DNA of 64,000 nt from an uncultured Pirellulaceae bacterium (GCA_964589435.1 CAZPTT010000009.1:2457-66456), one strand, 5' to 3'; positions 5,834 to 56,685 are shown, counted from the stretch's first letter. Program-made: numbers and translations. The notes: generated by a model from the letters alone, not told the origin.

Positions 5834-5888
5834 TTAACCGAAGTCGTTTTTGCGAGGGACAAAACGGTTTCAGAATCGATCTGTATTT

Positions 5889-6737
5889 ATGTTCACAACA
5901 TACGCGGGTGAGCTGCGCGCTACGCGATGCCATCACCAATGGCCTTCCAGGCAAGCGGCCCCACTGACGCGAGGGTTCACACTGGTTGAATTGCTTGTCG
6001 TTATCGCAATCATCGGAATTCTAATCGGCATGTTATTGCCAGCCGTGCAAATGGTACGAGAGTCCGCACGCCGCACAAGCTGCTTAAACAACCTTCGCCA
6101 AACAAGCATCGGCTTGCAGGCGTATCACGCGGCACTGGAAGAATTCCCAGTTGGCGCGATCGAGTGGCGAAGCGGCGGAGACAAAACGAAGCGTCAGTTG
6201 GCTTGGAGTATCCATTTGCTTCCATTCCTTGAACAGGACAATGTTCATCGACAACTTGATCTCAACACTCCGTTTGACAGTCCAGAGAATGCGCACGGTG
6301 CGGCTCAGATTTTGAGCGTCTTCATTTGCCCAAGTGGAGTACGCGGAGCAACGTTGGTGGACGGTCGTGGGCCATGTGACTATGGCGGAATTTACGGAGA
6401 GCGCATCAACAGTCCCAACAATCCTCCCAAAGGGATCATGATCCATGACATCGCCATTCGCTTGGCCGATGTGACCGACGGAAGCTCCAACACACTGATC
6501 GTCGCCGAGGACTCTGGCTGGGGCGATGGACAGTGGATCAATGGTCGTAATATTTTTGATCAAGCATTTAAAATCAATCAAGCGCCGTCATTTGAAAACG
6601 ACATTCGCAGTGAACACCCCAGCGGTGCCAATGCGACTCGCGCCGACGGCAGCGTGATGTTCATCTCGGAAAACACAGACCTGCAAACACTCGGCGCGAT
6701 CTGCTCCCGTGCCGGCGGAGAAACCGTCAGCTTTTGA
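5889..6737 (+). CDS. DUF1559 family prepilin-type (PulG-like) protein
   Basis: GFTLVELLVVIAIIGILIGMLLPAVQMVRESARR...C.NNLRQ, DGSSNT and the C-terminal H-X9-DG motif (HPSGANATRADG). ATG at 5889 preferred over TTG at 5850. Confidence 0.93.
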   Translation: MFTTYAGELRATRCHHQWPSRQAAPLTRGFTLVELLVVIAIIGILIGMLLPAVQMVRESARRTSCLNNLRQTSIGLQAYHAALEEFPVGAIEWRSGGDKTKRQLAWSIHLLPFLEQDNVHRQLDLNTPFDSPENAHGAAQILSVFICPSGVRGATLVDGRGPCDYGGIYGERINSPNNPPKGIMIHDIAIRLADVTDGSSNTLIVAEDSGWGDGQWINGRNIFDQAFKINQAPSFENDIRSEHPSGANATRADGSVMFISENTDLQTLGAICSRAGGETVSF

Positions 6738-6842
6738 ATGAGCCAACACTTACATCACTCTTGAATATGCCGACGGTTTTCCCTCGGCGCTTCTTACTTT
6801 TTAAGCACCTGCTTTTTGCTTTTTCACCTTGCGGCTAACAAC

Positions 6843-7721
6843 ATGAAACACTCACTAACTTTAAGTTCCCTATTCTTAGCTTCCATTTTCTTGGCGGCCA
6901 CGTCGACAACAGCTCAAACGCTTACCTTCGAAGAACTGCCTGTTCCGGCGACTGGTTTTTTTAACGGAGACGTTAATGGGGCGGCAAACTTGCGACAGAA
7001 CTTTCGCACGATTGGAACCCGAGACAACTTCGGTTCGGAAGAGACTCTTCAACTCTGGGGGCTCGGCGGCGGCGAGTTTTTTAATGGCTACACGGAAGCC
7101 TTCGGGTCTTGGAATGGCTGGAGTTGGTCGAACGTCGAAGATTCGGCGACTGCCGGATTCTTGAATCAGTACGCCTCGTTTCCAGGCGGGGGAAGTGATG
7201 GAGTTGGTGGAACTGACTCCGGTGGTAACTATGCGATTGGGTTTAGCGGCGAAGCGTACTTCAATTTACCTTCACTGACGGAACTAGTCTCGGTTGATCT
7301 CGCGAATTCGACCTACGCCGCACTATCAATGCGCGATGGAGATCAGTTTGCTCGCAAATTCGGTGGAGACAGCGGCGATGAAGAGGACTTTTTCAAGATC
7401 GACATCATTGGCTACAACCAGTTGTTCACCGGATCCGATTTAGCAGGATCCGAAGTAGGCTCGGTCGAGCTATTTCTGGCCGACTATCGTTTCGCGGACA
7501 ACAGCCTTGATTTCATCTCTGATCGCTGGAACAACGTTGATCTTTCTTCGCTGACCGGAGCCCAGTCGATCCGTTTCGCGATCGAGTCATCGGTAGGAGG
7601 GACACCATCCTATGTGGCCATCGACAATCTCAGCCTGACGACCTCGGTTCCAGAACCAGCAAGCGGAGCGTTTTTACTGGGCACGAGCTTGCTGCTGCTT
7701 ACGCAACGTCGTCGCCGCTGA
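6843..7721 (+). CDS. DUF4465 domain protein with signal peptide and PEP-CTERM sorting signal
   Basis: Signal peptide; DUF4465-like motifs WSWSN, NQYAS, NSTYAALSM.DGD.FARKFGG, FLADYR, W..VDLSSL and PSYVAIDNL; C-terminal VPEP + hydrophobic stretch + RRRR. Confidence 0.85.
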   Translation: MKHSLTLSSLFLASIFLAATSTTAQTLTFEELPVPATGFFNGDVNGAANLRQNFRTIGTRDNFGSEETLQLWGLGGGEFFNGYTEAFGSWNGWSWSNVEDSATAGFLNQYASFPGGGSDGVGGTDSGGNYAIGFSGEAYFNLPSLTELVSVDLANSTYAALSMRDGDQFARKFGGDSGDEEDFFKIDIIGYNQLFTGSDLAGSEVGSVELFLADYRFADNSLDFISDRWNNVDLSSLTGAQSIRFAIESSVGGTPSYVAIDNLSLTTSVPEPASGAFLLGTSLLLLTQRRRR

Positions 7722-7941: not shown

Positions 7942-10476
7942 TTGAATTCTCATCTGAACACCCAAGACCTTGGCGAGGTAGCGATGCTGAATCTTAGACT
8001 CTCAATCCCAATTCCGTCGCAGCAAAACTCTGCCAAACTTTGGCTGAAACTTGCGATTACTATCGGCTTGACATTTTCACTCAGCGGCATCTCGTTGAGC
8101 CAAGAAACATCAAGCAAGGAAGGCGCGGCTGCCGCAGGAGAAGTTGACGAAGAGTTTCCGGACGCACCATCGGTTCAACTGACCGTCCTGGAATCCAACG
8201 GCAAACCGATCCCGCACGCTGACGTTTCTGTCAGTTGCTGGTTCCAAGATCAACAATACCGGTCAAAGTATCCCCGCGATCAGAAAGCAGACGAAAATGG
8301 CATCGTCACGATAAAGCTTCTTCCAACATTGGAACGAATACGATTTTGGGTTTCTGCTGAGGATCATGTGACTCTATTCTCTGGCTTCGAACCAGGAATG
8401 CTTGCCAATCTCCCGAGTGAAATTACGTTTCGCTTGCAGCGATCTGAATCGATCGGTGGAAAAGTCCTCGACTCCGACGGTAAACCGGTCGCCGGAGCCG
8501 CCATTGAGATCATGAGAAATGGCGGGGGGAGTAAACTCGACACCAATGACTTCTCACAATTGAATACATGGATTGCATTAGATGACGATCCGATACGAAC
8601 CGACGAAGATGGTGAGTGGATGATCGATCAGCGGATTCCAACTGGTGACGATCTTGATCTGAGCTTCATTGTCAAACATCCGGATTTGCTTGGTGATTCA
8701 CGCTGGACATCGATGAGCAAGAAACGGGTCACGCTGAAGCAATTAAAGGAGCGATCGGCGACCTTCACAATGACAAAAGGAGCCAGGCTGAAAGGGACTG
8801 TGGTCGATGATGCTGGTAAACCCATTGAGAATGCGTTGGTCATTTGGGGGGATCGACCGTACTGGGAAAAAGGAAGCCAAGAGATAAAAACAAACTCGGA
8901 CGGTGAATTTCATATCCCAGCGCAGAGCAAATCGAAACCGCTGAACGTGACCGTCGTCGCTCAAGGCTGGATGCCTCAATTGAGAAAGTTCAACCTTGCC
9001 AAGGAAGGGCTCGAGGCGAATTTTTCGATGGCCAAGGGTAAGAAGTTACATTTGAAGTTCGTCGACGCCAACGGAGATCCGGTACCCAAGGTTCGCGTTG
9101 GACTCAAAAAATGGCGGGGCATCGAATCACTCTACAACATCCAGCATCCCAATGTTGTCGATTCCAAAATCCCCACCGTCTCAGACGAAAATGGTGAGTA
9201 CATCTGGGACTGGGCGCCCGATGACGAGGTCACTTATCAAACCGGCAACCGTGAATTTGCTCGGTTCACGGAACGCAAGTTGATCGCCGACGGGACGATC
9301 CAAACGATCGAACTAAAACAAAAATTCTCCCTCGCCGGAACCGTTGTCAATGCAGTGACCAATGAGCCAGTCGACCAGTTTACGATTACGCCGGTAACTT
9401 GTTATCCCGGCGGGCGGGGGATTGCTCAGTCCAACAGCAGCCAGCAGTTTGCGTCCTCCAATTTCACAATGAACGTTGATTCGTTTGGCCATCACGATGG
9501 TAACATCAAGTTCGAAATCGAGTCGCTTGGATTTCGCGTCAAAGTAACCGAAGAGTTTACGAAAGAGGCTAAACCATTTGAGGGCGTGATTGCGATGGAA
9601 CCTGTTCCGTCTCCGACTGGACGAGCCGTCGATACAGCTGGAAACCCTGTCTCGGGCGCTTCAATTTTTGTCTGCACCAAAGACAACGGCGCAATGATCA
9701 ACGGTATCGATGAGTATTTCCAATCGAGCGAGCGAATGTATAAAGCGGGCGAAGATGGAAAATTCCAGTATGCCGCCCAGAATTCGCGAGTTGCCATCAC
9801 CATCGCTTCGCCCGACGGCTATGCAGAGAAATATCTTGAAAGTGACGAGCATCCCGGCGACGTTGTTCTCAAACCCTGGGCGCGAATCGAAGGTCAGTTG
9901 GTTCAAGCCGGCAACCCGGTTCCTGGTGCAACAGTGATGGTCAATCCGATCCGAACATTGGGAAATGAAAACCCTCATGTTCAGGATATTTTTTATACTG
10001 AAACCGACAACGAAGGTCGGTTCGTTTTCGAAAGAGTTCCGCCCATTCCTTGTTCGATCCGTAGTCGACTTTCGCCATGGGAAGACGCTCCCATCACGTC
10101 CAACCGCTCAGTTGCAATCCGACTAGAACCCGGCAAGACTCACCAAATAAGCCTTGGCGGCGAAGGTTTACAAATCGTGGGCAACGTGAAACTCAATGGA
10201 GAATCTACTGATCACATCGAGTTCCGGTACGGTCTCAACACGCTACTCAAAGTCGGCAGCAAGATTGAACTGGAAAAGCACCTCGTCAATCCCGGCCAGT
10301 TTTCTGTTGGCCAGGAGAAAGACGAAATGATGCGGCTCACCGATGGCAGTGGCTCAACAGCCGGCTACGAAACTCACTTTGTCAAAATCAATCCTGACGG
10401 GTCTTTTCTGATCAATGGAGTTGCTCCAGGAGACTATCGTTTTTTACTTCGGGTGTACGAACCGCCCTCTGGCTGA
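7942..10476 (+). CDS. Large exported protein with carboxypeptidase-regulatory-like beta-sandwich repeats (5' part of an in-frame fusion with the TlpA domain)
   Basis: Signal/TM segment and repeated G.V.D..GKP..GA.V...TD.DG.F motifs. Start codon uncertain (7942-7984). Confidence 0.8.
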   Translation: MNSHLNTQDLGEVAMLNLRLSIPIPSQQNSAKLWLKLAITIGLTFSLSGISLSQETSSKEGAAAAGEVDEEFPDAPSVQLTVLESNGKPIPHADVSVSCWFQDQQYRSKYPRDQKADENGIVTIKLLPTLERIRFWVSAEDHVTLFSGFEPGMLANLPSEITFRLQRSESIGGKVLDSDGKPVAGAAIEIMRNGGGSKLDTNDFSQLNTWIALDDDPIRTDEDGEWMIDQRIPTGDDLDLSFIVKHPDLLGDSRWTSMSKKRVTLKQLKERSATFTMTKGARLKGTVVDDAGKPIENALVIWGDRPYWEKGSQEIKTNSDGEFHIPAQSKSKPLNVTVVAQGWMPQLRKFNLAKEGLEANFSMAKGKKLHLKFVDANGDPVPKVRVGLKKWRGIESLYNIQHPNVVDSKIPTVSDENGEYIWDWAPDDEVTYQTGNREFARFTERKLIADGTIQTIELKQKFSLAGTVVNAVTNEPVDQFTITPVTCYPGGRGIAQSNSSQQFASSNFTMNVDSFGHHDGNIKFEIESLGFRVKVTEEFTKEAKPFEGVIAMEPVPSPTGRAVDTAGNPVSGASIFVCTKDNGAMINGIDEYFQSSERMYKAGEDGKFQYAAQNSRVAITIASPDGYAEKYLESDEHPGDVVLKPWARIEGQLVQAGNPVPGATVMVNPIRTLGNENPHVQDIFYTETDNEGRFVFERVPPIPCSIRSRLSPWEDAPITSNRSVAIRLEPGKTHQISLGGEGLQIVGNVKLNGESTDHIEFRYGLNTLLKVGSKIELEKHLVNPGQFSVGQEKDEMMRLTDGSGSTAGYETHFVKINPDGSFLINGVAPGDYRFLLRVYEPPSG

Positions 10477-11001
10477 CTGATTGACCCAATTGGCAGTAAG
10501 TTTATTGCCTTCACAACGAGTGACTTCAACGTTATCGACAATCAGATTGACATGGGCACGATTACCATCGACCTCGCGCCGTTGCCGAAGCCCGGCCAGC
10601 CATTGCCTAATTTCCGATACGCCGATCCTGCCGGCCAAATGAAACAGTCGTCGGATTTGCAAGGCGAAGTCGTCCTCATCGATTTCTGGGCGACTTGGTG
10701 CAAGCCTTGTGTCGCATTGCTTCCCGAAATAGAAGAAATTCATGACTTGCTCGATGACAAAGATGGCTTTCGATTGTTGGGCTTGAACCTAGATTCGGAT
10801 GTTGAAGCTGCGAAGTCATTCTTGGCGGAACGAGACTTGCCGTGGGAACAAGGCTTCCTCGGCACAAAAAAGGACGCGCTAAAATCTCTTGGAATTAGCT
10901 CAGTCCCTCATTATTGCTTGGTTGATGCCGACGGAACGATTTTGGAATGGGGCAGTAACTTCGAAAATATAAAGGCCCGTTTGAAAACCCTGCTCAAATA
11001 G
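10477..11001 (+). CDS. TlpA/ResA-like thioredoxin domain, in frame with the upstream ORF across one TGA
   Basis: VLIDFWATWCKPC and ISSVPHYCLVDADG. The frame is open from 10477; the track calls 10552..11001. Confidence 0.8.
   Translation: MIDPIGSKFIAFTTSDFNVIDNQIDMGTITIDLAPLPKPGQPLPNFRYADPAGQMKQSSDLQGEVVLIDFWATWCKPCVALLPEIEEIHDLLDDKDGFRLLGLNLDSDVEAAKSFLAERDLPWEQGFLGTKKDALKSLGISSVPHYCLVDADGTILEWGSNFENIKARLKTLLK
10492..10509 (+). other. Putative bacterial SECIS-like hairpin
   Basis: GGCAGTA-agtt-TATTGCC, a 7-bp stem with one G-U pair. The loop begins 22 nt after the in-frame TGA and has G at loop position 2. Confidence 0.3.
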
Positions 11002-11138: not shown

Positions 11139-13838
11139 ATGTCGGTTGACGATTACCCAAACGGCACCACGGGCGAGGTGTTTCTCAACTCGCCACTTTC
11201 AGGTGTCTTCAATCACTGCCCTCCCGAAGGCGGTGATGGTTCCGAGCTGACATTCGACAGTGACGGTTTCTTTTTCCGCGGCGAGTCAAACAAGCTCTAC
11301 GAAATAATCATAACCGTCGACGGCGGGCGGATTCGCAATTTTTACGATCCGTTTAGCAACTCGGAACTAGAACACTCCAGCGTACAACTGTTGGAACATA
11401 ACAACACAGCAACGTCCCGGATGATTGTCTCGACACGCCCCGGAACCAGCTCCAGTTCACCAACCGTATACTTCAACATCGACAACGTAGGCCTTGGCGA
11501 ACGAGACCAAAATTACACGATCAATGTCACGGAGCACGAAGTACCCATCGGAACTTCGACACTCGTACACCTGTTCGAAAATAAAGTACGTCATGGCCTG
11601 ATCGACAGCGGCGCAGATCGCGACTCCTATTTGGTGAAACTCGAAAAGGACTTCACCTACCGATTTGACATGCGCGGAGACAGCACCAACAACGGCTCAC
11701 TCACTGACCCATCGCTGAGCCTCTACAACGGAAATTACACTCCATTACGTTTTGACGACAACGGCGGAGTTGGTCAGGACGCGAGCTTCGCCTATGTGGC
11801 ACCGGTGAGTGGCTACTACTACGTCGAGGCGTCAGCAAATCAAGTCGCCGGTTCATACGAACTTGAATTTGAAGTCATTGACTTTCCAGATGATGCGCCT
11901 GCTCACCCCGGCACCAACAGTCGGCTGGAATTGATTCCCAATTCGTATTCTTCGCTTACGGGCACGATCGAGATCCAAGGCGATCTTGATTGGCATCAGG
12001 TCGACCTAATTGCAGGTCGTTGGTACGAAATCTCTTTCGCAGGAGGTATGCCGGCTCAATTGTTCGACACAAACTACCAGCGTATCGACAGAGCATTGCC
12101 CAGTTCGTCACCAGTTAAACCCAACTACTTTCGCGCAACCCAGACCGGGACTCACTTTATCGAAGTCGGATCCCGTTCACCATTTTCTCAGCAAACCGGC
12201 GGATATTCCATCTTGGTCGGCGACAACTCAGTCGCCCAAGCCTTTGGTCATAGCTCCATTGACTTGGTTGGCAACGCAACTCGTTCGCTCAGCACGATCT
12301 TCTATCCCAATGACTTTCCCGCTGAGCGACTCCAATTGGTCTCAGAGGCAGACTTCTTCATTGGCGATTCGATCTACGATCGCTACCTGCTGCACAATAT
12401 TCCTATCGACCAAATTGCCGATGTTCGGTTCGAAGGTGGCTTGCAACGAGGCGATTACGATGTCAGCGTCAGAGCCGTCGGCGGCGGCACGACAACGCCT
12501 TGGATACAAACGGTCGTTTCATCGACGATCGATCCGACCGCCGTTTTGGGAATCAACCAAAAATGGGACAGCTCCAATACCGAATTGCAAACTGACGATG
12601 TGGTCACGTACCGGTTTGCCGATTCCGTACCATCGTATTTCGCCGACGACCGCTTCGCCGGATTCGCTGCCGTCAGCGATCAAGTTCGCCAGGCATTTGA
12701 GGGCATTCTTGGCTTCACGACGATCAACGGAGAACGAGGATTATCCAGCTTGCTTGATGTCAATTTTGAATTGAGTGACTCCGAAACAGCGGACATTCAA
12801 ATCTTCACCGCTGACGCAACGGATCGGGCCATCGGCTATTTCCCAGGCAAAGCCGGTTTTGGGGATATCGTTCTAGATAACGATCTATTCTCCGGTGCGG
12901 CAACCGCAGAACCTGGCGGCGAAGAGTATTTTGACATCTTAAAATCAGTCGCCTCCGCCATCGGCATGAAACACTTTACAACCGACTTTGATCGTCAAGA
13001 GTCGATCGTCGGACTGAAATATTCTGACACAACTGGTCAACCCTTTCCGGAATCCTACGGTACTCAAGACATTCAATTTCTCGGTTCTCTTTATGGAATC
13101 GCGCCAAATCGGCAACTAACAGGCAACACCGATTCACTTGGCTCGACCGATGAGACTTTCGTGCGAACGATTTTTGAAGAGTCGAATGCGAGCGCAATTT
13201 CGGCCGAATCATCACCACGAGCGGCAAGCATCGATCTTAGGCCAGGTGCAATCAGCCATTTGCTTGGCGGTGGCCCTTGGCAAAGCTACGCAGTTGGAGA
13301 ATCAGTCTACGTTAATCGCGCCCTCGGTAGTCAATTCAATGACCAACTCACGGGCTCGCACTTCACCAATCGAATTGAAGGCTACGGCGGCGATGATGTC
13401 ATTGCTGGTCTAAGCGGAGACGATCAACTACTGGGCGGACTTGGCAACGATACATATCTTTATGAAACAGGAGACGGTAACGACTGGATTTTGGAAGAAG
13501 GCACCAATCGAGCCGAAGGCGGTATCGACACGATTCAAATCAAAGGTAAATTCGGTTTGGATCGACTTGAGGATGACCTTTCGTTTCGCAGGAATGGCGA
13601 CCATTTATTGATCGACTTAAACATGAACGGTGAAGACAATCGCTCATCCGGCCAAATTGATGTCCGCTACATGAGCTATGAACCGTGGCAAGTTGAAAGA
13701 CTTGACCTGAGAAACTTCTCGACAGAGTTAGGCGTCATCAGCCTCGTTTCAATCTGGGAAGGCGCGACAGAGCAAAGTCAACGATTCGCGCTGACAGGAA
13801 CCTCAGACGCTTTCGGTTTGGTCGCTGCTCCCGTTTAG
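11139..13838 (+). CDS. Serralysin-like/RTX Ca-binding protein with PPC domains; zinc site degenerate
   Basis: PPC-type repeats (G.I....D.D...V.L.....Y); serralysin-like core; GG.G.D nonapeptides (GYGGDDVI, GGLGNDTY, GDGNDWI); no signal peptide. Confidence 0.75.
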   Translation: MSVDDYPNGTTGEVFLNSPLSGVFNHCPPEGGDGSELTFDSDGFFFRGESNKLYEIIITVDGGRIRNFYDPFSNSELEHSSVQLLEHNNTATSRMIVSTRPGTSSSSPTVYFNIDNVGLGERDQNYTINVTEHEVPIGTSTLVHLFENKVRHGLIDSGADRDSYLVKLEKDFTYRFDMRGDSTNNGSLTDPSLSLYNGNYTPLRFDDNGGVGQDASFAYVAPVSGYYYVEASANQVAGSYELEFEVIDFPDDAPAHPGTNSRLELIPNSYSSLTGTIEIQGDLDWHQVDLIAGRWYEISFAGGMPAQLFDTNYQRIDRALPSSSPVKPNYFRATQTGTHFIEVGSRSPFSQQTGGYSILVGDNSVAQAFGHSSIDLVGNATRSLSTIFYPNDFPAERLQLVSEADFFIGDSIYDRYLLHNIPIDQIADVRFEGGLQRGDYDVSVRAVGGGTTTPWIQTVVSSTIDPTAVLGINQKWDSSNTELQTDDVVTYRFADSVPSYFADDRFAGFAAVSDQVRQAFEGILGFTTINGERGLSSLLDVNFELSDSETADIQIFTADATDRAIGYFPGKAGFGDIVLDNDLFSGAATAEPGGEEYFDILKSVASAIGMKHFTTDFDRQESIVGLKYSDTTGQPFPESYGTQDIQFLGSLYGIAPNRQLTGNTDSLGSTDETFVRTIFEESNASAISAESSPRAASIDLRPGAISHLLGGGPWQSYAVGESVYVNRALGSQFNDQLTGSHFTNRIEGYGGDDVIAGLSGDDQLLGGLGNDTYLYETGDGNDWILEEGTNRAEGGIDTIQIKGKFGLDRLEDDLSFRRNGDHLLIDLNMNGEDNRSSGQIDVRYMSYEPWQVERLDLRNFSTELGVISLVSIWEGATEQSQRFALTGTSDAFGLVAAPV

Positions 13839-15981: not shown

Positions 15982-18900
15982 CTAACCGCGGCCACCCCAC
16001 TTCGGTGCAGGTGGCGCTTTAGCCGAGAGATTCTTCTGATCGATCAACATTTCCACCGATGTTTTTCCAAGCAGTTCCTTTAACCGGCGTGTCATCTGCT
16101 CGTTGATCTCGACTTTCTTATTGGACGTCATTTCGACGCGCATGCCATTGTCCAAAACAAGTTCGATCTTTAGCTCTCGATTGCCCGGATAGCCACGCAA
16201 AATCTCGTAAGCCTTTTTGAGACCTTCATGACCATGATGGTTCTGATCGATCATGATTTTGATGCCTTGTGTCAGGTTCTCATCCAACTGAGCGAGTGGA
16301 ATGACCTTGTCCACAATCAAGTTCGCTTCATCACCACCTCGGTAATCCAATCGGCCTTGAAGCACGACAACACCGTCGGCAACAACCATATGGCCCTGCT
16401 TGGCATAATCTTGCGGCCAAAGAATGCACCGAATCGCTCCATCAACGTCTTCCAAATCGAACATCGCATATTTGGTTGGCGAGTTTGGATCACGTGGATT
16501 CTTGACGTGCGATTGTTTTAGTGCCGAGATCATTCCGCCCATGCTGACGCGATCGCGATCTTTTGTGCCTTCAAGACCTGACGTTTTATGTGAGCAATAG
16601 CGAGTGAGCTGATCTTCATAGGCGGCCAGCGGGTGACTGGTGAGATAAAAACCAAGCACTTCTTTTTCCGCCGCCAGCGTTTCCCGCTCTTCCGCCTCAG
16701 GCACATCCGGATAGTCGACAATCGATTCTGCTTCATCGTCATCGTCGTCATCATCGCCACCAAACATATTCATTTGGCCACTTTGTTTATCTCGCAGCAG
16801 TGCAGCACCCGATTGCATCGCGCGCTCCATAACGGCAAACAATTGGGCTCGATTGACGCCAAAACAATCCATCGCGCCGGCCTTGATTAAACATTCAATC
16901 GAAGACCGACCGCACTTCTGAGCTTCAACACGTTCGCAAAAATCAAACAGGCTCTTGAATGGGCCATTCTCTTTTCGTTCCTTGGCGATCGATTCCGCTG
17001 CTCCCGTTCCGCAACCCTTGATCGCCGACATCGCAAAAAAGACTTTGCCATCGGCAACTGTGAATTCGACATCCGATTCGTTGACATTGGGCGCAACGAC
17101 TTCGATATCCATCCGCTCGCAGTCTTCCATGTGCTCGACCAGTGAGTCTTTACTGGTAAAGTTTCGACCTGGAATATCGCCCGAGAGCAACGCCGCCATA
17201 AACTCAACGGGATAATGAGTTTTCAGATAGGCCGTTTGCCAAGCCACCAAAGCGTATGCCGTTGAGTGGCTTTTGTTGAAACCGTAACCCGCAAATTTGA
17301 GGATCATGTCCCACATGTCTTGAGCGTCTTTTTTGGAAAGACCTTGCTCGACGGCACCTTCCATGAACTGCTCGTAGTTCTGCGCGATCAATGCTTCTTT
17401 CTTTTTACTGATCGCTTTAATACAGGTGTACGCAGCAGCGAGTTGGATTTTTCCCAGTCGGTTCAGGATCTGCATCACCTGTTCCTGATAGACCATCACG
17501 CCGTGCGTTTCCTCATGAATATCCTTGAGGACGTCCAGTTTATATTCGGCTGGCCGTCGACCGTTTTTCACGTCGACGTATTGTTGAACCATCCCTCCTT
17601 CCAGCGGACCGGGACGATACAGAGCATTGGTCGCGATAATATCGCTGAAGTGATCGGGCTTCATTTTTTGCAACAGGTCACGAATCCCGCCACTTTCCAA
17701 TTGAAACACGCCCTTAGTTTCACCGCTCTGAAGCAACGCAAACGTTGGTTTGTCATCGAGTGGAAACTTCAGGATATCAAGACGCTCGCCAGTCGTTTGT
17801 TCAATCAGATCGACCGAGTTGCGCAAAATCGTCAACGTTCGCAATCCAAGAAAATCCATCTTCAGCAAGCCAGCCGCTTCAACGTCATTCATCGACCATT
17901 GGGTGATGACATCAGTTTTTCCGGCGACCCGGCCCAGCGGCACGTAGTCGGTAAGCGGGCCATCGCCAATCACCACGGCCGCCGCGTGCGTTCCAATATT
18001 TCGCGCCAAACCTTCTAGCTTTCGTGCGAAATCCAGCATCTCGGCAATCTCAGGATCGCCTTCATAAACGCTTTTCAATTCCTCACTGGAAGCGATCGCT
18101 TGGTCGAGCGTGATCCCCAATTGATCAGGCACCATTCCGGTGACTTGATTGACGCGAGCCAATGGAATGCCAAGCGCCCGACCAACGTCTTTGATGGCGG
18201 CACGTGCTTTCATCGTTCCAAACGTGCCGATCTGGGCGACACTTTCTTCGCCGTACTTTTCTTTGACGTAGCGAATGATGTCGCCCCGACGTTCTTTGCA
18301 AAAGTCGATATCGATATCGGGCGCTTCTAAACGATTTTCGTCAAGGAATCTTTCGAACAGCAAGCCGTATTTGATCGGGCAAACGTGACTGAGGTAAGTC
18401 GCGTAACAAACGATTGCACCGACACCACTTCCACGAGCTGTGGCGGGCACATTTTGCTTACGAGCTTGGTCGACGAAGTCCCAACAAATCAAGAAATAGT
18501 TGGCGAAACCAAGCTTCCTGATGACTCCCAATTCTCGTTCGAGCCGATCAATCACGACCTGCGCAAATTTTCCATCGGAGTACATTTCGGGATTATCGCT
18601 ATAACGATCGCGAAGCCCTTCGTAACACAATTCACTCAACCGTTCATCGGGATCTTTGCCTTCGGGCAGTTGGAAAACCGGGAAAAATCGCTTACCAAGT
18701 TCAAGCTCAATATCGACGGTGTTCGCAATTTCCTGGCTGCGCGCGACGGCGTCTTCAAGGCCAGGAAATTTTGTATACATCTCTTCTGGCGGGCGAAGGT
18801 AAAACTGGTCACCTTCCATTTTCATCCGCTGAGCGTCGGTTCGAAACTTGCCCATGTTGATGCACAACATGACGTCTTGGGCTTCCGCATCTTCTTTGTC

Positions 18901-19554
18901 GACGTAGTGGCAATCGCTGGTCGCCACGAGCGGGATTCCGACCGAGTTGGCGACTTCGACAGCTCCTTTGAGTTGTTCACGTTGGATGTCGACGCCGTTA
19001 TTCATGATCTCAATGAAGTAGCGCTCGCCAAAAACTCCTTGAAACCATTGAGCGATATCTGCGCCTTGTTGGAGATAGTCTTCGGCACCATTGCCACCGC
19101 GTTTCAAAACGGCTCGACTGAATTCGCTTGAGACACAACCACTCAAACAAATGATTCCCTCACTATGTGCCTCAAGTAATTCCTTATCAATTCGCGGCTT
19201 GAAGTAAAATCCTTCCAGACTGGCCTTGGAGGCCATTTGAACAAGGTTTCGAAAACCGGTTGCGTTCTGGCACAACAACGTCAGGTGGTAGCTGGAATCC
19301 CGGCCCGAGGTTCCCTTGGTTGTCCGGTGGCCGGGGGCGATATAGGCCTCATAACCGATAATCGGATTGATGTCTTTTTCACGACACTTTCGATAAAACT
19401 CGAGCGACCCATGCAAGTTGCCATGGTCAGTCAAAGCCAACGCGTTCATCCCATGGTCAACCGTTCGCTGAACAAGTTTGGGAATCGAGCTGGCTCCGTC
19501 CAACAGGCTGTAATGACTATGACAATGAAGATGGACAAACGGTCGCTGGGACAT
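15982..19554 (-). CDS. dnaE: DNA polymerase III alpha subunit
   Basis: PHP HLHCHSHYSLLDG, GSGVG, PDIDIDF, KMDFLGL, YGFNKSH and a C-terminal OB fold. Confidence 0.98.
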   Translation of the reverse strand: MSQRPFVHLHCHSHYSLLDGASSIPKLVQRTVDHGMNALALTDHGNLHGSLEFYRKCREKDINPIIGYEAYIAPGHRTTKGTSGRDSSYHLTLLCQNATGFRNLVQMASKASLEGFYFKPRIDKELLEAHSEGIICLSGCVSSEFSRAVLKRGGNGAEDYLQQGADIAQWFQGVFGERYFIEIMNNGVDIQREQLKGAVEVANSVGIPLVATSDCHYVDKEDAEAQDVMLCINMGKFRTDAQRMKMEGDQFYLRPPEEMYTKFPGLEDAVARSQEIANTVDIELELGKRFFPVFQLPEGKDPDERLSELCYEGLRDRYSDNPEMYSDGKFAQVVIDRLERELGVIRKLGFANYFLICWDFVDQARKQNVPATARGSGVGAIVCYATYLSHVCPIKYGLLFERFLDENRLEAPDIDIDFCKERRGDIIRYVKEKYGEESVAQIGTFGTMKARAAIKDVGRALGIPLARVNQVTGMVPDQLGITLDQAIASSEELKSVYEGDPEIAEMLDFARKLEGLARNIGTHAAAVVIGDGPLTDYVPLGRVAGKTDVITQWSMNDVEAAGLLKMDFLGLRTLTILRNSVDLIEQTTGERLDILKFPLDDKPTFALLQSGETKGVFQLESGGIRDLLQKMKPDHFSDIIATNALYRPGPLEGGMVQQYVDVKNGRRPAEYKLDVLKDIHEETHGVMVYQEQVMQILNRLGKIQLAAAYTCIKAISKKKEALIAQNYEQFMEGAVEQGLSKKDAQDMWDMILKFAGYGFNKSHSTAYALVAWQTAYLKTHYPVEFMAALLSGDIPGRNFTSKDSLVEHMEDCERMDIEVVAPNVNESDVEFTVADGKVFFAMSAIKGCGTGAAESIAKERKENGPFKSLFDFCERVEAQKCGRSSIECLIKAGAMDCFGVNRAQLFAVMERAMQSGAALLRDKQSGQMNMFGGDDDDDDDEAESIVDYPDVPEAEERETLAAEKEVLGFYLTSHPLAAYEDQLTRYCSHKTSGLEGTKDRDRVSMGGMISALKQSHVKNPRDPNSPTKYAMFDLEDVDGAIRCILWPQDYAKQGHMVVADGVVVLQGRLDYRGGDEANLIVDKVIPLAQLDENLTQGIKIMIDQNHHGHEGLKKAYEILRGYPGNRELKIELVLDNGMRVEMTSNKKVEINEQMTRRLKELLGKTSVEMLIDQKNLSAKAPPAPKWGGRG

Positions 19555-55524: not shown

Positions 55525-56631
55525 CTACCAATCATAAACACTGAGAGCACTATGCACCTCACCGCCGTTGATTGAGCCGAGAGCTCCCCAAACACCGTAG
55601 GGGCTGGCGACTGATCCGGCGGACATCTGCTGATCATTAAGAACTGACTGGGTTGGATCACCAGCGTCAATTTTGTCGTCGATCGTATGAGTCGAACCGT
55701 CCATCAATGCAACATGAATGACTCCCGCATGATTACTACCGGCTGAGTAGATCCCATCGCCTGATTGCTGCTCACCCACCGAACAACTTGGACTGTTGGG
55801 TGGCAACACAGTGTTCACGATTCCACTTCCTGCGGCACCATCAGCCCAACTACCGCCTCGACCAGGCGTTCCGAGGGCTAAATCAGAGCGAAGCTTCCTC
55901 TGAATGCCTTGAGAATTCTCGACGAGCTTGAAGCACTCACTTGGGTCATCTAGAACGCTCGACGATTGGTTGATTGCATACTGGGCGATTACAGCCCGAT
56001 CAGAAGACGTGCCGATCTCAGCAATCCCAATCGAATTGCTCGTACCATCTGAAAAGTCAGTAATCCGAGTCTTCGTTCGACAACTAAACGCACCTCGCAC
56101 TTGTGAGGAACCATGAATATTTCTGGCCATGTCACCGACGCAGAACGCATAGTTCGTCCGCCCAAATGGCCCCGGCGTTTCATTGGCTGAAGGGCACTGA
56201 AACATTTCAATATTGGTTTGCCAAGGAAGATAGGTATCGTCCAATGGCGACGGCCCGGCCAGAAAGTCAACGCCCTCGAATGTTGACGGATTCGAAACGG
56301 TCTCCCACAGCTCGCCTTGCTCCATCAGTGGGAGCAAAGTCACCCAGCCACTCAACCGCTGGGAACTGTTTTCAAGGCCTTCCATTGACCCCATGGCCGT
56401 CGGGAAACTCATGTGGCTCGATTCATGATTGAGTGACGCGAGCGCAAGCTGTCGCATATTGTAATGACACATGCTGCGGCGCGACCCTTCTCTGGAAACT
56501 CGCTGCGCCGGCATCAACATTCCGAGCAAAATCCCAATGATCACAATCACTATGAATAGCTCGAGTAGCGTGAAACCACCTCGTTGACTTTTTCGTAAGC
56601 GTTGCGTCCGGCGGTTCAATTCTTGCAACAT
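55525..56631 (-). CDS. DUF1559 family prepilin-type protein
   Basis: GFTLLELFIVIVIIGILLGML.P, DGTSN and H-X9-DG (HAGVIHVALMDG). Confidence 0.9.
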   Translation of the reverse strand: MLQELNRRTQRLRKSQRGGFTLLELFIVIVIIGILLGMLMPAQRVSREGSRRSMCHYNMRQLALASLNHESSHMSFPTAMGSMEGLENSSQRLSGWVTLLPLMEQGELWETVSNPSTFEGVDFLAGPSPLDDTYLPWQTNIEMFQCPSANETPGPFGRTNYAFCVGDMARNIHGSSQVRGAFSCRTKTRITDFSDGTSNSIGIAEIGTSSDRAVIAQYAINQSSSVLDDPSECFKLVENSQGIQRKLRSDLALGTPGRGGSWADGAAGSGIVNTVLPPNSPSCSVGEQQSGDGIYSAGSNHAGVIHVALMDGSTHTIDDKIDAGDPTQSVLNDQQMSAGSVASPYGVWGALGSINGGEVHSALSVYDW

Positions 56632-56649
56632 TGCAACTCCTTGGTTAAT

Positions 56650-56685
56650 CAATTTGAAACCATCGACCAATTTGAAACCATCGAC
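56650..56685. repeat. Perfect 18-bp tandem duplication
   Basis: CAATTTGAAACCATCGAC twice, abutting the stop codon of the DUF2306 gene. Confidence 0.9.

Follow-up and report, generated by a model that had tools for sequence, protein, structure and literature searches.

The 64,000-nucleotide stretch of DNA analysed here (the window; positions 2457-66456 of contig CAZPTT010000009.1, assembly GCA_964589435.1) stems from an uncultured Pirellulaceae bacterium and carries on its plus strand, at positions 7942-11001, a candidate selenoprotein gene with a single in-frame TGA codon at 10474-10476. The reading frame starts with TTG 7942 or ATG 7984, continues in frame through the TGA and ends with the TAG at 10999-11001; it comprises 844 + 1 + 174 = 1019 codons when counted from the TTG and 1005 when counted from the ATG. 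The 844-codon open reading frame (ORF) upstream of the TGA (7942-10473, plus strand) ends with ...RVYEPPSG, and the same frame resumes behind the TGA with LIDPIGSKFIAFTTSDFNVIDNQIDMGTI... and passes through the motif WCKPC before it reaches the stop codon. A preliminary description of the sequence had proposed that the TGA fuses a large exported protein to a WCKPC thioredoxin, and the coordinates and the unbroken frame of this fusion could be reproduced. The continuity of the frame, the Pfam domains, the existence of fused homologues and a gap-free alignment of orthologues over the TGA all point to one gene. It is highly likely that the TGA is read as selenocysteine (Sec) in a single exported or membrane-anchored protein of around 1000 residues from marine Planctomycetota, and it is very probable that a genuine gene is present here which all assemblies examined annotate incorrectly.

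The N-terminal part of the protein contains the hydrophobic segment KLWLKLAITIGLTFSLSGISL (8032-8106), which was read from the translation and is likely a signal peptide or a membrane anchor; the orthologue P0102 possesses an equivalent hydrophobic segment at its N-terminus. Repeated immunoglobulin (Ig)-like beta-sandwich domains of the CarboxypepD_reg type were detected upstream of the TGA using Pfam. The TGA is followed by 25 linker codons (10477-10551), which are predicted to encode the last strands of the final beta-sandwich, and by the ATG (10552-10554) that gene callers use as the start of a TlpA protein, but which appears to be an internal Met codon and not a conserved start. A hairpin resembling a bacterial selenocysteine insertion sequence (SECIS) is located within the linker, with its stem at 10492-10498 and 10503-10509 and the loop AGUU at 10499-10502. 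The C-terminal part consists of a TlpA/ResA-type thioredoxin (Redoxin) domain (10588-10953) with an intact CxxC motif, which is encoded by TGC AAG CCT TGT (10699-10710) within WATWCKPC; the first cysteine of this motif lies 75 residues after the TGA codon. The domain matches the Pfam family Redoxin with an E-value of 3e-15 and 56.6 bits (cut-off 26.6), and Thioredoxin_8 and AhpC-TSA also score above their cut-offs. The NCBIfam equivalog models of TlpA, ResA and DsbE give scores under their cut-offs for the window protein, and the domain is therefore regarded as a TlpA/ResA/DsbE match at the family level only. In a Foldseek search, the C-terminal domain of an AlphaFold2 model of a homologue matched the structures of ResA, DsbE and Etrx2 with a TM score of around 0.8 on the target.

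Homologues of the read-through sequence provide the first line of evidence for Sec. A homology search retrieved proteins of 39-49% identity that are continuous over the junction, and all of them carry YEPPxG-C-L[VI]xPxG at the TGA column. An exhaustive profile search yielded 1837 representatives at E < 1e-30, which typically comprise around 950-1400 residues and have a C-terminal module of around 490 residues in common. The TGA column is occupied by cysteine in 119 of the approximately 160 representatives that span it, and by other residues in around 40 more distant ones. DNA of two of the Cys forms shows that the cysteine codon is TGT in one (L087) and TGC in the other (L086), and the hairpin is absent from both. 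The named Cys-form homologues at NCBI come from Planctomycetaceae and from metagenome-assembled genomes (MAGs) of Planctomycetota, which, like the DUF1559/SBP_bac_10 genes of the window, is consistent with a planctomycete-like source.

The second line of evidence comes from TGA-containing orthologues. The close match P0003 stops exactly at ...YEPTSG, and its contig L001 carries an in-frame TGA at the same codon; L001 and the window can be aligned without a gap over 475 codons at 77% nucleotide identity. In total, seven TGA lineages were compared: the window, L001/L090, L089, L091, L092, L093-98 and L099. L093-98 represent a single species recovered from at least six samples; L090 belongs to the same species as L001, and its contig of 169.7 kb shows synteny with the window. 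In all seven lineages, the TGA occupies the identical codon position of a gap-free, in-frame alignment, at pairwise nucleotide identities of 63-79%. The synonymous substitution rate (dS) is at least 1.5 or saturated, and the ratio of nonsynonymous to synonymous rates (dN/dS) amounts to 0.06-0.08 in both flanks of the TGA and to 0.04-0.23 in the 25 linker codons, as computed for three lineages. Across all seven lineages, the linker keeps the family-conserved residues F, T, D, Y/F, V/I, N, I, D and G while the codons change. Judged from these sequences, the linker after the TGA is translated and under purifying selection at the protein level, which agrees with the earlier impression that these codons look protein-like. 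The two observations that had been named beforehand as support for Sec were both made: cysteine at the TGA column of homologues, and retention of the TGA, here in six further diverged lineages and one strain variant.

The hairpin is constrained at the nucleotide level, its 18 nt being identical in 7/7 lineages. There are 77 positions at which all seven lineages have the same amino acid and this amino acid is degenerate, and a single codon is used throughout at no more than eight of them: positions -4 and -1, and the hairpin itself with its six successive codons GGC AGU AAG UUU AUU GCC. Only two invariant runs of at least 8 nt exist over the seven lineages; one covers the hairpin (20 nt), and the other, GGCUGACU, spans the TGA and corresponds to its codon context GGC UGA CU (10471-10478). 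In a three-way comparison over 1383 nt, positions 10490-10511 form the sole invariant run of at least 12 nt. In the spacer that separates the UGA from the hairpin, synonymous positions are free to vary (CTG/CTA, ATT/ATC/GTT, GAC/GAT, CCA/CCG/CCT). This pattern of nucleotide-level constraint looks like that of an RNA element embedded in the coding sequence. The peptide encoded by the hairpin is altered in comparison to the Cys forms: it reads GSKFIA in the window, as opposed to GYKYVE or GAKTVR in the two Cys forms L087 and L086, and GYGFLE is likewise encountered among the Cys forms.

The hairpin has the sequence GGCAGUA-AGUU-UAUUGCC and consists of a 7-bp stem, which includes one G-U pair, and a loop of 4 nt whose second and third bases are GU. 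It begins 15 nt downstream of the UGA, and 22 nt lie between the A of the TGA and the loop; stem, loop, spacing and the G at loop position 2 are as had been described before. In the Zhang and Gladyshev model of the bacterial SECIS (bSECIS), for which PMC13188914 gives a summary, the loop comprises 3-9 nt and the upper stem 4-16 bp, a G is found in the first two loop positions and is usually followed by G or U, the UGA is separated from the loop by 16-37 nt, and the minimum free energy is -7.5 kcal/mol or lower. When compared by hand with these criteria, the AGUU loop, the 7-bp stem and the 22-nt spacing all agree with the model, and the energy is borderline, at -7.0 kcal/mol when the 18 nt are folded alone and -8.2 kcal/mol when 3-nt flanks are included. 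The earlier statement that the hairpin matches the general description of a bacterial SECIS is therefore upheld.

Three other explanations for the TGA were considered. A lone in-frame stop is, a priori, most commonly caused by an artefact or a decaying gene, that is, by a sequencing or assembly error or by a recent nonsense mutation (TGC, TGT or TGG to TGA) in a pseudogene; the preliminary description had held this to be at least as likely as Sec, and the low depth of the runs (2.4-6.1x) would fit such an error. However, the TGA is kept in the independent ENA assembly L003 (99.26% identical) and in the Logan assembly L004, and contigs from four seawater-metagenome runs, which are assembler contigs of the depth given above and not raw reads, show no change at the TGA or the hairpin. 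A variant strain differs from the window at 14 positions in 10513-10623 and at none in 10465-10512; it co-occurs in two of the four runs, and several of its 14 sites (111 nt) match the L001 state. Taken together with the presence of the TGA in seven lineages with saturated synonymous divergence and with dN/dS below 0.1 in both flanks, these data reduce the probability of an artefact or decaying gene to a negligible level, and sequencing error and recent pseudogenisation are excluded. The same holds true for a genome-wide reassignment of TGA: 12 other long ORFs in the window are terminated by TGA, which is thus an ordinary stop codon in the source organism.

It could also be argued that the locus harbours two real genes, with the TGA ending an exported protein of 844 residues and a separate TlpA protein, whose N-terminal peptide would read MGTITIDLAPLPK, being produced either through a start at ATG 10552 or through termination-reinitiation; a role as a coupling, pausing or mRNA-stability element would then fall to the conserved hairpin. 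Gene callers in every source indeed annotate two ORFs, and position +26, which corresponds to ATG 10552, is an ATG in 4/7 lineages. Yet, this position is a TTG (Leu) in one further lineage (L091) and no start codon in two (L094 and L089, where it is CTC/Leu), the next in-frame starts are located inside the Redoxin domain, and Cys-form homologues have Leu at the position of ATG 10552. No Shine-Dalgarno-like sequence was found ahead of ATG 10552 by direct reading, as had been remarked earlier, and a stand-alone TlpA protein would lack a signal peptide and would therefore not be exportable. A split at the TGA would also remove the final strands of the last beta-sandwich domain. In the AlphaFold2 model of the Cys-form protein P0001 (mean pLDDT 82.6, pTM 0.76), the equivalent Cys316 is positioned in a loop between strands 302-309 and 322-329, and a further strand (339-349) precedes the thioredoxin domain; the model thus places the TGA inside the last beta-sandwich domain and not between domains. 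Two genes would be expected to show a conserved downstream start and a stop at a domain boundary, and neither was found. The 25 supposedly intergenic codons are instead in frame, gap-free and under purifying selection despite saturated dS, and more than 100 homologues run continuously over the junction with cysteine at exactly the TGA column, so that two separate genes at this point, which had been named as an observation that would speak against Sec, are not what the homologues display. Two genes are consequently considered very unlikely, and an equally low probability is assigned to programmed read-through without Sec, in which the hairpin would stimulate the insertion of a standard amino acid (Trp or Cys, by a near-cognate tRNA) and the fusion would still be made. 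The evidence for a single translated frame serves this explanation just as well, and UGA followed by C is a poor termination context. Both alternatives also profit from the fact that the Sec machinery of the source organism is presumed by analogy. What argues against read-through without Sec is the SelB-type bSECIS geometry of the hairpin with GU in its loop, and the identity of the recoded site as one of only three conserved cysteines, beside a CxxC domain, which is a classic Cys/Sec setting. Sec use and TlpA-like selenoprotein candidates are, moreover, documented in marine planctomycetes. We know of no bacterial mechanism for hairpin-dependent non-Sec read-through that is conserved over such divergence.

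The decoding of the TGA as Sec, which had been suggested to occur outside the CxxC site, is thus strongly supported by the Cys column, the TGA in seven lineages and the invariant hairpin, so far as sequence comparison can support it. Several results weigh against it, nevertheless. The hairpin is weak, short and AU-rich, and its energy is borderline; in the single sequence, a 67-nt fold has a z-score of -0.74, and 41 of 200 shuffled sequences fold equally well or better, so that the significance of the hairpin derives from the comparison of orthologues only. All 7 apical pairs are invariant over the seven sequences, which leaves no covariation by which the pairing could be proven. RNAalifold also predicted a lower SECIS stem, but its pairing is disrupted in several lineages, and it was dropped. 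No Rfam family was detected in 10300-10700, even at E = 10. With respect to the Sec machinery, ARAGORN found no tRNA genes in the window and hence no tRNA-Sec there, and tblastn searches with E. coli SelA and SelB gave no homologue in the window or in 99 fetched loci. Six exact 8-mers of the window protein had no match in the GTDB representative genomes. TGA-N15-GGCAGTAAGTTTATTGCC was likewise without a match in these genomes, and since both scans were empty, the lineages with the Sec form are not among the GTDB representatives. A precedent for Sec machinery in the phylum is nonetheless documented: Kim et al. 2016 (PMC4807772) reported complete selA/B/C/D sets in two marine planctomycetes as well as in Gemmata obscuriglobus and Isosphaera pallida, and by analogy the source organism may possess one as well.

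Scans for in-frame TGA codons and for CxxU/UxxC motifs revealed no other convincing selenoprotein candidate in the window; the best-looking other in-frame TGA (56688, minus strand) is merely the end of one gene followed by the next gene. When metagenome contigs were scanned with the generic pattern DFWATWC, the matches listed contained only generic TlpA loci (L006-L085) of at most 29% identity.

Based on these findings, the following mechanism is proposed. The UGA at 10474-10476 would be decoded co-translationally as Sec, with the mRNA hairpin at 10492-10509 acting as a bacterial SECIS. At the UGA, where the ribosome would pause, the hairpin would recruit SelB together with Sec-tRNA(Sec), and the invariant UGA-C context would favour recoding over termination by release factors. 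The last beta-sandwich of the CarboxypepD_reg type contains the conserved loop YEPPxG-U/C-L[IV]DP[IV]G, in which the Sec residue is predicted to be located; the CxxC motif follows 75 residues later. Since Sec normally replaces a redox-active Cys, the loop residue may represent a third redox centre outside the cytoplasm; together with the CxxC motif, it might, for instance, form a selenylsulfide that is resolved by the tethered thioredoxin domain, and this redox activity would take place in the periplasm or at the cell surface.

The distribution of cysteines in the family is compatible with such a relay. The C-terminal module possesses only three conserved Cys columns, which are the junction Cys and the two cysteines of the CxxC motif. 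Both the junction Cys and an intact CxxC motif are present in 106 proteins, 4 have the junction Cys and a degenerate motif, 21 have another residue at the junction and an intact CxxC motif, and 11 combine another residue with a degenerate motif, these being counts without correction for phylogeny. The active site is therefore degenerate in 4/110 of the C-forms versus 11/32 of the non-C forms (raw counts that ignore relatedness), and a functional link between the junction Cys and the CxxC motif is possible. Degenerate active sites in the alignment include CxxS in P0002 and a complete lack of Cys in P0009 and P0013; the latter two also lack the junction Cys, which hints at a joint loss of the three-Cys set. 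P0011 (L005:253-1029) was considered as a relative, but only around 80 residues at its start are module-like (70% identity), which are followed by a Glyco_hydro_92 (GH92) domain; it probably derives from a chimeric contig and was dropped.

The Cys-form family of the Planctomycetota (e.g., MCA9013565.1 and MEM6364312.1) resembles the window protein in its C-terminal module of around 490 residues with the YEPPxG-C-LVDPxG loop and the CxxC motif. Its members are anchored either by a BlaR1/Peptidase_M56 domain or by a signal sequence and contain CarboxypepD_reg repeats and a C-terminal TlpA domain. They differ from the window gene in that the predicted Sec is replaced by Cys (TGT/TGC) and the hairpin is lacking, and some of them are fused to an M56 sensor domain and encoded beside a BlaI-like repressor; the window gene, in contrast, has only the N-terminal hydrophobic signal or anchor and no M56 domain. 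In L087:4791-9360 and L086:7282-11782, the protein with Ig-like repeats and TlpA domain continues from a BlaR1-type Peptidase_M56 membrane domain in which HExxH is present, and the fused gene directly follows a BlaI/MecI-like Penicillinase_R repressor gene. The long gene is frameshifted in both L087 and L086, probably due to low-coverage long-read assembly. The M56 fusion and the neighbouring BlaI-like repressor gene hint at a sensing role for the module. It is tentatively suggested, with rather less than even confidence, that the window protein is the founding case of a selenoprotein in which, within a very large exported or surface protein, Sec is placed on a loop of an adjacent Ig-like domain and forms a U + CxxC relay with the tethered TlpA domain, thereby providing a self-recycling extracytoplasmic selenol centre, and that the module of the Cys forms may be the part with which BlaR1-type sensors perceive redox state or stress.

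The genes surrounding the candidate selenoprotein gene are partly conserved between lineages. Immediately upstream, at 6816-7721 (plus strand), lies a gene for a DUF4465 protein (Pfam, 1.4e-36) with a PEP-CTERM-like sorting signal, VPEPASGAFLLGTSLLLLTQRRRR, at its end; this arrangement is kept in L090. Two genes of the DUF1559/SBP_bac_10 type, which are a hallmark of Planctomycetota and encode prepilin-like N-termini (GFTLVELLVVIAIIGIL...), are found at 5850-6737 (plus strand) and 55525-56670 (minus strand). Tad/VWA genes are located upstream, as are TadE genes in L090; the gene order Tad - DUF1559 - DUF4465 - selenoprotein gene is common to the window and L090. Directly downstream, at 11139-13838 (plus strand), a protein of 899 residues is encoded, which shows a weak match to RTX/HemolysinCabind repeats and is otherwise devoid of recognisable domains. 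L003 also encodes this protein, which is not found beside the gene in L090, L089 and L092. Further downstream, dnaE, encoding the alpha subunit of DNA polymerase III, forms a single ORF of 1190 codons in the window (15982-19554, minus strand). It is called as two ORFs (675 + 504 amino acids) in the 99.3%-identical L003:6659-10200, and is also split in the related species L090 (12374-15947; 783 + 405 amino acids), at a place different from that in L003.

If the TGA is indeed decoded as Sec, several consequences arise. In every assembly examined, the locus is annotated as a 'hypothetical' protein that is truncated and a 'TlpA' protein that lacks a leader, and the correct model would be one Sec-containing protein of around 1000 residues; the same correction would apply to at least seven marine lineages. 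The gene would also extend the documented use of Sec in Planctomycetota. As Sec almost always marks a redox-active residue, the loop Cys, which is conserved in more than 100 representative proteins, is flagged as functionally important, thereby giving a handle on the function of the abundant planctomycete proteins that combine an M56 or signal anchor with Ig-like repeats and a TlpA domain. Furthermore, the minimal, perfectly conserved element of 18 nt could serve as a compact model for studying which SECIS elements planctomycete SelB recognises.

The candidate gene shares features with several known systems. Like other bacterial genes with a SECIS inside the ORF, it has an in-frame UGA where homologues have Cys and a small hairpin just downstream within the coding region; its hairpin, however, with 7 bp (one of them a G-U pair) and around -7 to -8 kcal/mol, lies towards the weak limit of the model. 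NCBIfam, which holds many curated selenoprotein models, returned only generic sub-threshold matches to thioredoxin families. The family is not included in the selenoprotein family tables of the 2022 and 2026 reviews, a full-text literature search retrieved no paper that links selenoproteins with carboxypeptidase-regulatory-like domains, and TlpA is mentioned in selenoprotein papers only for the UGC family. The members of this family, NF041054 or 'Prx-like (UGC-containing)' in the Global Ocean Sampling (GOS) study (PMC2398784), are likewise selenoproteins with a TlpA/ResA-type thioredoxin-fold domain. They carry Sec inside the thioredoxin domain in a WAxxUGC motif, whereas the window protein has an ordinary WCKPC motif and the predicted Sec lies 75 residues upstream in another domain; the NF041054 model gives the window protein 32.5 bits at a cut-off of 300, and the WAxxUGC motif is absent. 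A similar picture emerges for the UxxC thioredoxin-fold selenoproteins (thiol-disulfide isomerase-like, Trx-like, Prx-like and DsbA-like; PMC13188914, PMC2398784), which share the redox fold context and the predicted extracytoplasmic location and are abundant in marine metagenomes. In UxxC/CxxU families, Sec replaces a Cys of the CxxC motif, whereas the window protein keeps both of these cysteines and would have Sec as a third residue outside the fold; it is also considerably larger, with around 1000 residues and many Ig-like repeats. By the convention of the field, a different Sec site defines a different subfamily (PMC9312934).

A further parallel is found in the marine planctomycete strain P1, for which Kim et al. 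listed split 'thiol-disulfide isomerase-like thioredoxin' selenoprotein candidates (PMC4807772, Table S9). As in the window, a TGA separates the two adjacent annotated genes of each pair, the closest homologue has Cys, the annotation is TlpA-like, and the source belongs to the marine Planctomycetes; for the two P1 genes, no SECIS was identified by bSECISearch, and the comparison with the window gene is one by description only. The window gene apparently represents an undescribed selenoprotein family with Sec outside the thioredoxin active site; the family may, however, be identical to these candidates or sit unnamed in the supplementary lists of large MAG surveys. The proposed U + CxxC relay is only loosely comparable to mammalian thioredoxin reductase, in which a mobile C-terminal Cys-Sec pair (GCUG) forms a redox centre. 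Thus, the recoding mechanism would be the standard bacterial one, and it is the position of the Sec residue that distinguishes the window protein from the known thioredoxin-fold selenoproteins and makes it unusual.

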